Shown here one piece after another: positions 5,665 through 9,473 of a DNA stretch of 27,746 nt. Position numbers and translations under genes: made by a program. The stretch is taken from the IMG/VR virus record IMGVR_UViG_3300037423_000201, positions 1 through 27,746 of that record. One strand, written 5' to 3'. Each line of letters opens with the position of its first letter. Position 1 is the first letter of the stretch. Origin of the DNA: a virus (Duplodnaviria; Caudoviricetes). The notes beneath the pieces were generated by a model. That model saw only the letters and a list, made by a program, of their open reading frames with translations, was not told the origin of the DNA and ran no database searches.

Positions 5665-5897
5665 TCGGCTTTGGCTGTCGTTGGTTCGCCATCGATATTG
5701 GGTATAGCCCGAAGTGGGACGAGACCGGCATCTGGGTTTATGGGCCAGTCCGCAAGCAAAGAGGACGATGCGGCGCGCTCCGCTGGGAATGGTCCTTTCG
5801 GTTTTGTTACTACGACATAGACCGTAAGCGGGTTTGGCGGCATCGACCAGCTGAATTCCCGTTTAGGGGCTCTCGGCGCGTAAGGTTCCTAGACTGA
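5661..5897 (+). CDS. hypothetical Trp/Arg-rich protein, 78 aa
   Basis: ATG 5661 overlaps the upstream TGA and its own TGA overlaps ATG 5897, filling the gap exactly. Preferred to the track start at 5538. Confidence 0.55.
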   Translation: MIGFGCRWFAIDIGYSPKWDETGIWVYGPVRKQRGRCGALRWEWSFRFCYYDIDRKRVWRHRPAEFPFRGSRRVRFLD

Positions 5898-6196
5898 TGG
5901 AAGCCCACGCTCCGGCTCCTTACGACAAGGACATCCTCATGGCGGTGCGCGCCTGCATCGCCGGCAAGGCCAATGAGGGCCAGCAGCAGACGGCTATGGA
6001 CTGGATCATCAACCAGGCCAGCAACTACTACGACCTGAGCTATCGCAAGCAGGACAGCCACGCCACGGCCTTCGCCGAGGGCAGGCGGTTCGTCGGCGCC
6101 CAGATCGTGAAAATGCTTCGTGCGGAAACCCTTAAAGCAGTCGAGGGCAAGCCGCCGAAACCAGTTCGAGGCAAGAGGCAAGAGGCACAGGAATGA
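5897..6196 (+). CDS. Bbp19-like phage head-module protein
   Basis: Motif HATAFAEGRRFVGAQI matches the TAF.EG.R.VG..I signature of small proteins found between portal and scaffold in BPP-1-like phages. Confidence 0.75.
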   Translation: MEAHAPAPYDKDILMAVRACIAGKANEGQQQTAMDWIINQASNYYDLSYRKQDSHATAFAEGRRFVGAQIVKMLRAETLKAVEGKPPKPVRGKRQEAQE

Positions 6197-7131
6197 GCGA
6201 GGCAGCAGCGGTCGAGAAGGCCGCCGAGACGACTTCGGCTGAGACTACCGCCGAAACGACCACGCAGACGACCACGGCGGCCGCTACAGAGGCGGCGAAG
6301 ACTTCGGAAGCAGCAAACACCGCTGCGACCGAAACATCGTCTGGCGAGGCTGAGAAGACCGAAGCCAAGTCTCCCTGGGGCGACAACTGGCGTGAGGAAA
6401 TGGCAGGCGGTGATGATGATGTTGCCAAGGCCATCTCCCGCTATGGTTCGCCCAAGGGCGTCGCTCGTGCTCTGCGTGAGGCACAGGTTGCCATACGCTC
6501 CGGCCAGCAACGGCTTCCCAAGCCTGATCCCAAAGACGAAAAGGCCATGGCCGAATGGCGCAAGGCCGAGGGCATCCCCGATGATCCGACCGGCTACAAG
6601 CTGCCGGAGACTGTCACCAAGCGCCTGACCGATGAAGACAAGCCGGTCCTGTCGTCCTTTACCGAGTTCGCTCACCAGAAGGGCGCGCGGCCCGATGTCG
6701 TGGAAATCGCGTCGGAATGGTACGTCGAGATGGCTGAGGCAGCTCAGGCCAAGCAGATCGAAGAGGACAAGGTAGCCTCTGAGCAAGCCGAAGACGCGCT
6801 GCGCAAGGACTGGGCACACGGCGAGTACAAGGCCAACACTACGATTGCCCGGCGCTTCATCGAAGGCATTCCTGGCGTGGGCGCCAAATGGGCAGAGGCC
6901 CGCATCGACGGCAAGCGGCTCGGCGATATTCCGGAGTTCATCTCTTGGGCCGCCGATATGGGCCGCGAGAAATTCGGCGATGTTGCCTTCACCAGCAGCG
7001 ATTCCGAGCGCAAGCACACAGCGCGCATGGAGGAGATCAAGAAAATCATCGGGACCGACGAATATTACGAAAAGGGTCTCGACAAGGAATACGCGGCGCT
7101 TCTCGAAAAGGAACTGAAGCGCAAGAAATAG
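6193..7131 (+). CDS. capsid scaffolding/assembly protein
   Basis: 312 aa, low-complexity A/E/T N-terminus, acidic helical body, G.PDDP.GY.LP and LRKDW motifs, basic C-terminus; directly before the capsid gene. Confidence 0.8.
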   Translation: MSEAAAVEKAAETTSAETTAETTTQTTTAAATEAAKTSEAANTAATETSSGEAEKTEAKSPWGDNWREEMAGGDDDVAKAISRYGSPKGVARALREAQVAIRSGQQRLPKPDPKDEKAMAEWRKAEGIPDDPTGYKLPETVTKRLTDEDKPVLSSFTEFAHQKGARPDVVEIASEWYVEMAEAAQAKQIEEDKVASEQAEDALRKDWAHGEYKANTTIARRFIEGIPGVGAKWAEARIDGKRLGDIPEFISWAADMGREKFGDVAFTSSDSERKHTARMEEIKKIIGTDEYYEKGLDKEYAALLEKELKRKK

Positions 7132-7161
7132 GAATTCCCTGATCTCTGTCAGCGGATAGCA

Positions 7162-7183
7162 GCTCGCTTCGGCGGGCCTTTTT
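7162..7183 (+). terminator. intrinsic terminator after the scaffold gene
   Basis: GCTCGC-TTCG-GCGGGC stem with a cUUCGg tetraloop, followed by C-TTTTT. Confidence 0.75.
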
Positions 7184-7184
7184 A

Positions 7185-7310
7185 TTGCCTGCTCGGCCAC
7201 CCCGGCAACGGCCCCGAGACGGCAAGTCTACTGCCTATGACGTGAAGCCCCGAAAGTTGACCGGCCACCCCTCGCAAGAGGCCCCGGAACGCCTTCGGCC
7301 ACCCTGCACG
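7185..7310 (+). ncRNA. putative structured RNA (capsid-gene leader or small RNA) with three CCACC/CC internal loops
   Basis: Three copies of 5'-CGG CCACC C-3' / 5'-G CC CCG-3' closed by different but complementary helices; two GCAA tetraloops. Pairing worked out by hand. Confidence 0.7.
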
Positions 7311-7352
7311 GACAGCGGCTCCAAAACCCCTCAACCCTGAAAGGAACTGATC

Positions 7353-8195
7353 ATGGCTATCGAAGCCGCAATGATTCAGTATCGGCAGGAGTTCGTCGGG
7401 GCTTTCGAGCAGCGCGTGAGCCTGCTCAAGGCCATGACGACCAAGGAAGCGGTGATCAAGGGCAACCAGGCCACCTTCCTTGTTTCCGGCTCCGGTACTG
7501 ATACCGCAGTCACCCGTGGGACCAACGGCCAGATCCCGTATGGCAACCCCACCAACAACCAGGTCACCGCGACGCTTGTTGAAAAGCATGCGCCGTATGA
7601 ACTGACCGGGTTCAACATCTTCGCCTCGCAGGGCGACCAGAAGCGCGTCATGCAGAATGCGTCGATGGCGGTCATCAACCGCGACATCGATCTCACGCTG
7701 CTTGCCGAGCTGGCTAACGCTACCCAGGACTATCCGTCTTCGGCGCAGACCGCGTCGCTGCAGATGGTCGCTGGCGCCCAAGCCATTCTGGGCAACGCGG
7801 ATATTCCGGTGGAAGACGAGAACAACATGTTCGCGATCATTTCTCCGGCGTTCCGCGGCTATCTGCTCCAGACCACGGAATTCGCCTCGGGCGATTACGT
7901 GGACGTGAAGCCGTTCGGCGGCCCTGCTCGCAAGATGTTCCGTTGGATGGGCATCAACTGGGCTGTGTCCAGCCGCGTCACCGGCCTCGGCACTTCGTCG
8001 GAGCTTTGCTACCTGTTCCATCGTGACGCCATCGGCTACGCGGTGAACGTTGGCGAAGAGTCGATCGCCATCGGCTACGACGAGAAGCAGGACACGTCCT
8101 GGTCGCGCGCCACCGTCTTCCACGGAGCAAAAATCCTCCAGAACACCGGCATCGTGAAGTGGACTCACGACGGCTCGGCGTTCGTTGCTACGTAA
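7353..8195 (+). CDS. major capsid protein
   Basis: 280 aa after the scaffold; GAAAGGA RBS; strong codon bias; A..INR.ID, F.WMG..W and FHRDAIG segments typical of BPP-1/T7-like HK97-fold capsids. Confidence 0.85.
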   Translation: MAIEAAMIQYRQEFVGAFEQRVSLLKAMTTKEAVIKGNQATFLVSGSGTDTAVTRGTNGQIPYGNPTNNQVTATLVEKHAPYELTGFNIFASQGDQKRVMQNASMAVINRDIDLTLLAELANATQDYPSSAQTASLQMVAGAQAILGNADIPVEDENNMFAIISPAFRGYLLQTTEFASGDYVDVKPFGGPARKMFRWMGINWAVSSRVTGLGTSSELCYLFHRDAIGYAVNVGEESIAIGYDEKQDTSWSRATVFHGAKILQNTGIVKWTHDGSAFVAT

Positions 8196-8574: not shown

Positions 8575-9051
8575 ATGAAGATTCCCGCCAATACGGCGCT
8601 CAACAGCGCTGATTTCACCCGCACGCTTCGCCGCCTGATCGTGCCCAACGACATGACGATGGAAGACTTGTCTGTCCCCGGCAATTGGGCGCACGTCTCG
8701 TCCAAGGTCAAGGTCGATGACGAGGTGATCGTCATCCCGGAAGATCGGACCTGGCGCCTGCATATTCTCGTGGTCGAAGTCGGCGTTGGCTTCGTGCGCA
8801 CCGCGCTCCTCCACGCAATCGATCTCACGAAGACTGTTTCCAAGGCTCCGGCCGTCGAGCAGCCAAGCGCCGTGCCCGACGATGCTCCTGAGCCGCCAGC
8901 GGGCTACACCGTCAACTTCGCGCCGGCTCATAAGTGGCGCGCGATGACGAACGACCCGCATATGGTGGTCAGCAAAGACCATCGCACCAGAGCGGAAGCC
9001 GTCGCTGCTGCTGTAGCGCATTCCCGTAAGGCCTCTGGGCTCGCCGCGTGA
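8575..9051 (+). CDS. hypothetical protein, 158 aa
   Basis: GAGG RBS; Pro-rich linker before a short C-terminal domain; GTGA overlap with the next gene. Confidence 0.75.
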   Translation: MKIPANTALNSADFTRTLRRLIVPNDMTMEDLSVPGNWAHVSSKVKVDDEVIVIPEDRTWRLHILVVEVGVGFVRTALLHAIDLTKTVSKAPAVEQPSAVPDDAPEPPAGYTVNFAPAHKWRAMTNDPHMVVSKDHRTRAEAVAAAVAHSRKASGLAA

Positions 9052-9473
9052 CCACGGTCGCTTATCGCTGGGGTGTGCTGGCGGCTGACAGCCGCATGAT
9101 GAACGGCGGGTGGAAACACCGTTATGCCGCAGAAAAACTATTCCGTCTGCCGGACGGTGGCGTTGCTGCGGTAACCGGCACTTACGCCGAAGCCGTGGCG
9201 TTTGTGACATGGCTGCAGGGCGGCGAGGTTGGTGATAAACCATCCATCTCCGAATCGACAGTGATCCGTCTTCGCAAGAACGGCACGCTGACGATCTATG
9301 AGGGGAACGCATCGTTCAACGTAACGACAGAATTTGGCGCGTGGGGCAGCGGTTCCCCCGCCGCTAATGCCGCGATGTACATGGGTGCCGATGCTGCAAA
9401 GGCCGTCGAGATAGCTGCGTTGCTCGATGATTGCACTGGCGGCGAGGTCTTCACCATGAAGTGCGAGATTTGA
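9048..9473 (+). CDS. Ntn-hydrolase, HslV/proteasome beta-like threonine protease
   Basis: GTG start giving (M)TTVAY; LAADSR; Lys 16 residues after the Asp; GSGS; AVEIA..LD..TGG. Confidence 0.8.
   Translation: MTTVAYRWGVLAADSRMMNGGWKHRYAAEKLFRLPDGGVAAVTGTYAEAVAFVTWLQGGEVGDKPSISESTVIRLRKNGTLTIYEGNASFNVTTEFGAWGSGSPAANAAMYMGADAAKAVEIAALLDDCTGGEVFTMKCEI

Follow-up and report, generated by a model that had tools for sequence, protein, structure and literature searches.

Three copies of one internal-loop RNA module precede the major capsid gene of the podovirus-type phage analysed here, and these modules are conserved among its relatives and selected as RNA structure. As co-variation between the loops and protein sequence suggests, the loops are very probably read directly by the three-helix N-terminal domain of the scaffold-like protein encoded upstream, one domain per module, with Tyr/Phe84 placed at loop position 6. 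Scaffold binding to the capsid leader may in turn raise translation of the capsid gene, with output following the free scaffold pool, a reading to which we give a probability of about 0.52.

The capsid leader and its genomic setting

The window, meaning the whole 27,746-nt stretch of DNA that was analysed, comprises an entire IMG/VR virus record (IMGVR_UViG_3300037423_000201; Caudoviricetes) that is 54% complete. It encodes a podovirus-type set of head and tail genes, namely terminase, portal, Bbp19-like gene, 312-aa scaffold-like gene (ORF call at 6193..7131, + strand; phrog_3742, unknown function), major capsid gene (7353..8195, + strand; PF19821 Phage_capsid_2 and phrog_3437) and tail genes. 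The nearest named relatives of the scaffold-like protein, the likely reader of the RNA, are from Mesorhizobium, and relatives of the capsid protein were found in contigs of Rhizobium, Neorhizobium, Pelagibacterium and Pseudorhodoplanes. Loci resembling prophages are present in Rhizobium sp. BK251, Rhizobium sp. P40RR-XXII and Neorhizobium sp. IRAMC:178. Beyond the capsid gene and an 88-aa gene lies a 158-aa protein of unknown function (phrog_26742; 8575-9051), retained at this place by 105 of 124 relatives, and an HslV-family peptidase gene in the head–tail region (phrog_1040; 9048-9473) occurs in 20 of the 124 relatives examined.

The sequence-only reading had described three copies of the module, one of them strand-swapped and nesting another, and inspection of the sequence together with folding confirmed their presence and positions. 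Module 1 (7185..7225, + strand) is a GCAA-capped hairpin with its long strand at 7195-7202 (GGCCACCC), its short strand, GCCCC, at 7211-7215 and an outer helix formed by TTGCC and GGCAA (7185-7189/7221-7225, + strand). Module 2 (7261..7287, + strand) is likewise a hairpin with a GCAA cap, its long strand at 7263-7270 and its short strand at 7281-7285. Module 3 (7241..7310, + strand) is strand-swapped, with the short strand (7247-7251) ahead of the long strand (7297-7304); it encloses module 2 and carries the mismatch A7245.G7306. Two further elements were missing from the earlier description: helix P2 (7233-7235 with 7317-7319), which closes the core domain (7233..7319, + strand), and, between the scaffold gene and the RNA, an intrinsic-terminator-like hairpin with a UUCG loop (7162-7177) and a U tract (together 7162..7186, + strand). 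On the 3′ side, sequence and alignment define a C/A-rich linker with a Shine–Dalgarno (SD)-like AAGGA at 7341-7345 (7320..7352, + strand).

When the window sequence was folded alone, the GG/CC pairs reached probabilities of 0.87-0.98, and the closing C-G pair 0.88 in module 1, 0.95 in module 2 and 0.49 in module 3. The window region showed no excess stability over shuffled sequences (z = +0.95), and the evidence for structure is therefore comparative, not thermodynamic. The window has two occurrences of the hairpin pattern itself, where 0.04 would be expected.

Conservation and selection on RNA structure

Relatives of the capsid were taken from viral, genome and metagenome collections and by gene-blind patterns, yielding 171 distinct capsid-gene leaders, including two distant controls. 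The parser recovered the nested core, in which module 3 surrounds module 2, from 149 of the 171, and module 1 was found in 122 of these 149. Across 420 modules the consensus is RG-NYWMC-C for the long strand and G-CY-CY for the short strand, though the parser selects for this consensus and the invariant letters are thus partly so by construction. The claim that the 5x2 loop is invariant holds for the letters of the window but not across phages, where the loop varies among the 420 modules. Module 2 has its long strand first in 68 of the 149 leaders, as in the window (hereafter the LS layout), and its short strand first in the other 81 (the SL layout). This strand order changes once on a capsid tree of 124 proteins, and a model built from LS leaders alone, which has one strong site only in the window, detects SL leaders down to E about 1e-6. 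The spacing from first to last long strand is similar in the two layouts (medians 104 and 109 nt).

Most unparsed leaders (22 of 171 and, in a new set, 27 of 99) contain variant modules by eye, and a few, such as L641 and L763, show no module by eye; the RNA is absent from the distant PF19821 phages EXVC031P and MT838907. In four leaders (L339, L340, L341 and L344) module 2 has no tetraloop and is capped by a long loop in which the 7-mer AAUAAGC is repeated, and four others of the same capsid family (L363, L659, L677 and L759) have a divergent capsid leader with a promoter and different loops. Many LS-clade relatives share variants of a small hairpin seen by eye in the window just 5′ of the terminator, CUGA...UCAG followed by a purine-rich stretch (7139..7152, + strand).

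Selection on RNA structure was evident in a sequence-only alignment of the 68 LS leaders, in which 82.9% of cells were paired, versus 75.3% when shuffled and 20-43% when slid, and 24 of 37 pairs showed two-sided change. Covariation was assessed with a pairing-blind parse of 74/75 non-redundant leaders, where the flanking pairs of all three modules exceeded permutation except at position +2 of module 3. For example, pair -1 was complementary in 146 of 171 cases (97.9 permuted) and the G1:C5 pair in 197 of 207 (172 permuted), while loop–loop controls lay mostly at permutation level (e.g. 29/207 versus 30.1), two of them at p about 0.03-0.05. The first flanking pair varies between G-C, A-U and C-G, and parsimony places 2-19 Watson–Crick-to-Watson–Crick changes on each flanking pair. 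The 3-bp helix P2 also covaries, native duplexes standing at -4.07 kcal/mol versus -3.41 for chimeric ones (p=0.0002). RNAalifold recovered 7 pairs only, on a gappy alignment, and the GTT/AAC link that had been proposed between modules 3 and 2 is poorly kept, with 52.8% of cells paired in an ambiguous register.

GNRA caps are present in 164 of 271 cases, versus 9 on the other strand, and G-U outnumbers A-C in the modules (35 versus 15), which together identify the plus strand as the structured one. A DNA-level repeat or operator is ruled out by the covariation, the strand swap and this strand asymmetry, and the original proposal, that selection acts on RNA structure, is borne out by the covariation and strand asymmetry.

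Association with the capsid gene

The RNA is tied to the capsid gene in position. The last long strand lies 53-64 nt from the capsid start in the LS layout and 39-85 nt in the SL layout, and about 34 nt separate the end of the structure from the start codon. In several phages (L002, L004, L010, L056 and L062) the RNA keeps its place by the capsid gene despite DNA inserted 3′ of the scaffold gene. The stretch from scaffold stop to leader is an insertion hot spot, with 100-900 bases in these five loci and in L058, L344, L365 and L530. Gene-blind scans gave 240 loci, 84 of which passed the structure filter; this capsid was the first ORF in 59 of the 84, four more (L424, L518, L519 and L560) proved to be capsid genes whose ORF had been miscalled or was interrupted, and by eye the remainder resemble repeats or chance matches. 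A single-module scan returned mostly chance matches, with paired flanks in 14 of 125. Across 196 upstream regions, 308 module hits lay within 200 nt upstream of the capsid start and 15 were scattered beyond -330, with no module cluster at the start of the scaffold gene. Contigs from four RNA libraries cover the leader and the capsid start, three of them bridging both; transcription, ends and strand are not readable from contigs.

The element thus shows the positional features of a cis-regulatory 5′ leader, namely the same strand, a fixed distance and one gene family. The suggestion of a separate phage ncRNA is not supported, given the fixed distance to the capsid start and the lack of any terminator 3′ of the element. 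In three loci (L019:1554-2500, L018:99-1045 and L560 from 1619) the capsid gene itself is interrupted after codon 9-10 by about 0.9 kb of extra sequence, which contains a LAGLIDADG-like ORF and whose ends look like those of a group I intron by eye; these inserts have no Rfam match at gathering level.

A scaffold–RNA complex could instead act on transcription or stability, as a shield against Rho or nuclease or by read-through into the tail genes. For an antitermination element, another suggestion made from the sequence, the nearest terminator would be one upstream of the RNA. The C-rich linker at 7320-7340, modelled as unstructured, and a terminator-like site just upstream of the RNA in 42 of 67 LS leaders are compatible with such a role, but this terminator lies upstream of the modules and so out of their reach in cis, none was found between the RNA and the capsid gene or just 3′ of the capsid gene, and the constant spacing from the start codon favours a role in translation. 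We regard an effect on transcription or stability as improbable.

Co-variation with the scaffold-like protein

The label of scaffold for the 312-aa protein is a putative one that rests on weak tblastn matches among Pelagibacter phage proteins, of which six are annotated as (putative) capsid assembly protein, on a match of the family profile to HTVC010P gp07 (E=5e-35) and on gene order. The P22 scaffold family was absent among its PHROGs and Pfam hits, and the structure searches run returned no solved structural relative of the protein, its N-terminal domain or the capsid. Its model is all-helical. Residues 58-106 (6364..6510, + strand) form a predicted three-helix N-terminal domain with nearly invariant W66, R67 and R83, and the model of residues 66-102 has a pLDDT of about 90.

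Loop positions 6 (C/A) and 5 (A/U) change together in all copies of one phage. Between modules 2 and 3, concerted change was seen in 12.5 of 13 independent pairs at position 6 and 6.8 of 8 at position 5, and was much weaker at positions 3, 4 and short-strand 3. A reader that co-evolves with the loops would account for such concerted change better than copying between repeats. With the position-6 letter as one of five loop traits tested against the residues of six proteins, the association of Phe84 with loop A ranked first among 3,890 residue tests (phi 0.90). In the window the residue is Tyr84, with its codon at 6442..6444 (+ strand), and across phages Tyr accompanies loop letter C and Phe accompanies A. 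Among the 94 discovery phages with Tyr or Phe at this site, Tyr84 occurred with loop C in 69 and Phe84 with loop A in 24, with one exception; beyond these, 10 have other residues at position 84 and 11-12 are without the region.

The link between residue 84 and the loop persists in tree-aware tests, whether the pairs are drawn from the capsid tree (9.7 of 11, p=0.002) or from one built on scaffold residues 107-end (6.8 of 8, p=0.016). On the latter, the loop letter changes 18 times, residue 84 changes 18 times and the two jointly 20, which excludes simple linkage. A held-out set of 99 new leaders (72 parsed, 53 with the scaffold domain) contained 19 A-Phe, 2 A-Tyr, 30 C-Tyr, 1 C-Phe and one mixed case, such that 49 of 52 fit (Fisher 5e-11, with close relatives counted separately); taken alone, this set falls short of significance in a tree-aware test (p=0.06, with 5 of 7 pairs). 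When both sets are combined, 16.3 of 18 independent pairs agree and 0 are opposite (p=3e-5). Sister phages also differ in loop and residue 84 together, for example L039/L047 versus L044 and L321 versus L308.

The residues that track the RNA loop (80, 84, 93, 94, 98 and 102-106) all fall in the N-terminal domain. Residues 80, 93 and 94 follow the same loop letter as residue 84, K98 follows loop position 5 (phi 0.72) and residues 102-106 follow short-strand position 3 (residue 106, phi 0.78), the last two associations not being significant in tree-aware tests. Loop position 3 has many residue matches, by ancestry only. The capsid protein was rejected as the reader, with no column tracking the loop (best MI 0.32), and the 88-aa, 158-aa, Bbp19-like and tail-tube proteins likewise show no tracking.

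The co-variation could run through a third factor. It is conceivable that the loops are read by a host protein or a metabolite, or read each other, and that the link to residue 84 is indirect, as the tests covered neighbouring proteins of the phage, six in all. However, close sister phages change loop and residue together, three loop positions point to one 30-residue stretch, and a fixed host factor or metabolite would leave the repeated concerted change unexplained, making another reader highly improbable. Direct reading by the scaffold domain remains the favoured explanation, and the multivalent protein-binding RNA tied to the scaffold that was envisaged from the sequence gains a probable partner from the loop–residue co-variation.

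Predicted effect on capsid synthesis

In the mechanism proposed here, the N-terminal helical domains of the scaffold would bind the three 5x2 loops in the capsid leader, and bound scaffold would hold the C-rich module strands and helix P2, keeping them off the ribosome-binding site, or, by an alternative route, would help ribosome loading. As scaffold was drawn into procapsids, the activating signal would fall. Activation is preferred because spare scaffold would signal a shortage of capsid and, given scaffold binding, its chance appears somewhat better than even. Such binding would, we infer, set the capsid–scaffold stoichiometry.

Modelling of the SD supports a switch in one of the two layouts. 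In 61 SL leaders the cost of opening the SD was 5.9 kcal/mol when free, 4.0 with upstream sequence shuffled and 3.6 with modules formed. An anti-SD arm that starts at the 3′ side of P2 also shows covariation with the SD (p=0.0002), and this pairing is strong in 15 of the 61. With P2 forced, the cost fell by at least 0.5 kcal in 25 of 79 SL leaders and rose in 17. The LS clade, window included, showed no SD burial in the models (2.4 free, 2.3 with modules and 3.3 shuffled, n = 14; 2.9 versus 2.9, n = 66) and no covariation of an anti-SD arm (p=0.92), and the SD of the window opens at a modelled 2.3 kcal/mol, the same with modules forced. A conserved alternative pairing that would bury the SD, a feature of ON switches, is thus indicated for SL leaders and not for the LS clade of the window. 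Directly 5′ of the RNA, 20 of 81 SL leaders have a sigma70-like promoter, versus 3% in shuffles.

The same scaffold–loop co-variation would also underlie an assembly platform, in which leader-tethered scaffold catches nascent capsid protein and nucleates procapsids with little change in translation. Such a platform could operate in the window's clade without the modelled SD switch, and it accords with a three-site spacing that is similar between layouts and survives the strand swap of module 2. Relief of SD burial by module formation in the SL layout argues against it, as does the RNA's own promoter in that layout, which fits a regulated leader, and a platform seems unlikely overall.

Alternatively, leader-bound scaffold might repress the capsid gene by blocking ribosome loading, much as free P22 scaffold represses its own gene; the end of the structure adjoins the ribosome footprint. 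Repression of capsid by spare scaffold would, however, worsen the imbalance, modelled module formation frees the SD rather than burying it, and the scaffold gene of this family is without an upstream module. Repression is thus also improbable, and activation of capsid translation by bound scaffold remains the preferred reading.

Relation to known systems and to the wider phage family

As anticipated from the sequence, the element belongs to no known family: cmscan of the window and 11 related loci gave 0 Rfam 15 matches at gathering threshold, and at E<=10 the window matched isrB only (E=1.6), a chance match on the terminator. A loose resemblance to the C-loop had also been noted. C-loops occur in rRNA, the thrS operator and viroids, and have a closing U-A pair whose A makes a trans Watson–Crick/Hoogsteen contact with the first C, as well as two non-Watson–Crick pairs across the strands that build two triads. 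They are described as asymmetric, C-rich internal loops in hairpin stems, in which the longer strand usually starts with C (bioRxiv 10.1101/2021.12.02.470923). The leader loop is also asymmetric, C-rich and within a hairpin stem. In contrast to the C-loop, it is closed by C-G in 418 of 420 modules, and the short strand is without A in nearly all modules. Its first base is C in 243, A in 156, G in 12 and U in 9; the resemblance fails on the closing pair, and the first loop base is an uneven fit.

The closest known idea is scaffold autoregulation in phage P22, in which the scaffold represses the gene that encodes it. In P22 the N-terminal part of the scaffolding protein (gene 8) is reported to act on translation (bioRxiv 10.1101/2022.12.13.520362). 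The N-terminal part of the scaffold may be the regulatory part here too, as the co-varying residues all lie within 77-106, but the sites are in the capsid leader and are missing ahead of the scaffold gene. Operators and activators of translation that are bound by protein include the E. coli thrS operator, Mu Com-mom and the MS2 coat operator, which share with this leader structured or repeated sites upstream of the ribosome-binding site and, as proposed here, a protein reader whose free pool is sensed. Com-mom, which activates by freeing the start region, offers a model for the SL layout. They differ from this system in that a morphogenesis scaffold would here act as reader on a different structural gene, and there is no sequence or family match.

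GP20-a and GP20-b (RF02991, RF03003) and the csRNAs before capsid genes are comparative-genomics candidates that, like this element, lie directly upstream of phage head genes, and Fremin et al. 2023 predicted 8,495 RNAs from the database that holds the window record (PMC10690425). None of their candidates is listed under PF19821, a separation made by the table only, such that overlap with an unnamed candidate is possible, and no binding partner proposed for the capsid-gene candidates was found in their text. No description of this element was found in the literature searched, which covered Weinberg 2017 (PMC5737381) by its main text, where the word 'capsid' does not occur. Nor was a feed-forward link from scaffold to capsid found in that literature.

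Related modules extend to a cultured phage. In Alteromonas phage ZP6 (L769:1821-1920; NC_070953.1, about 5729-5830) the capsid gene is preceded by a consensus sigma70 promoter and then by two modules that keep the geometry but have GUAGC/GU loops. A scan for this version gave 121 matches, of which 5 were linked to a capsid gene, some of these five being nested like the window's; the version precedes capsid genes in L797, L824, L828, L873 and L886. Three scaffolds with GUAGC/GU leaders have Val or Ile at the position matching residue 84 by eye. The module is absent from the capsid leaders of HTVC010P (L767:2930-3040) and HTVC100P (L768:3085-3200), which have other hairpins and, by eye, a purine-rich internal loop; their scaffolds keep the N-terminal motif (W..., KF, LAKSY), and a small ORF lies between scaffold and capsid.

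The scaffold–capsid balance of tailed phages is a long-standing problem for which P22 is the one genetic example, and no defined RNA site was found for P22. New here are two loop letters that shift in all three copies, one of them tracking scaffold residue 84. They name an RNA site, a protein domain and a one-residue, one-base specificity swap, testable with a domain of about 55 residues and a 30-nt hairpin, and this small natural RNA–protein pair with alternative specificities is a possible orthogonal tag. The RNA element also marks a large phage group, a pattern scan with one capsid profile giving an estimated 950 stretches in IMG/VR. At its broadest, and at slightly less than even odds when all its parts are taken jointly, a widespread podovirus scaffold family (HTVC010P-like phages, Mesorhizobium/Rhizobium prophages and ZP6) would be a sequence-specific RNA-binding protein with a readable code (Tyr84 for C, Phe84 for A and an aliphatic residue with GUAGC loops), which switches on capsid synthesis through a modular, permutable three-site leader and perhaps also chaperones the capsid protein co-translationally.
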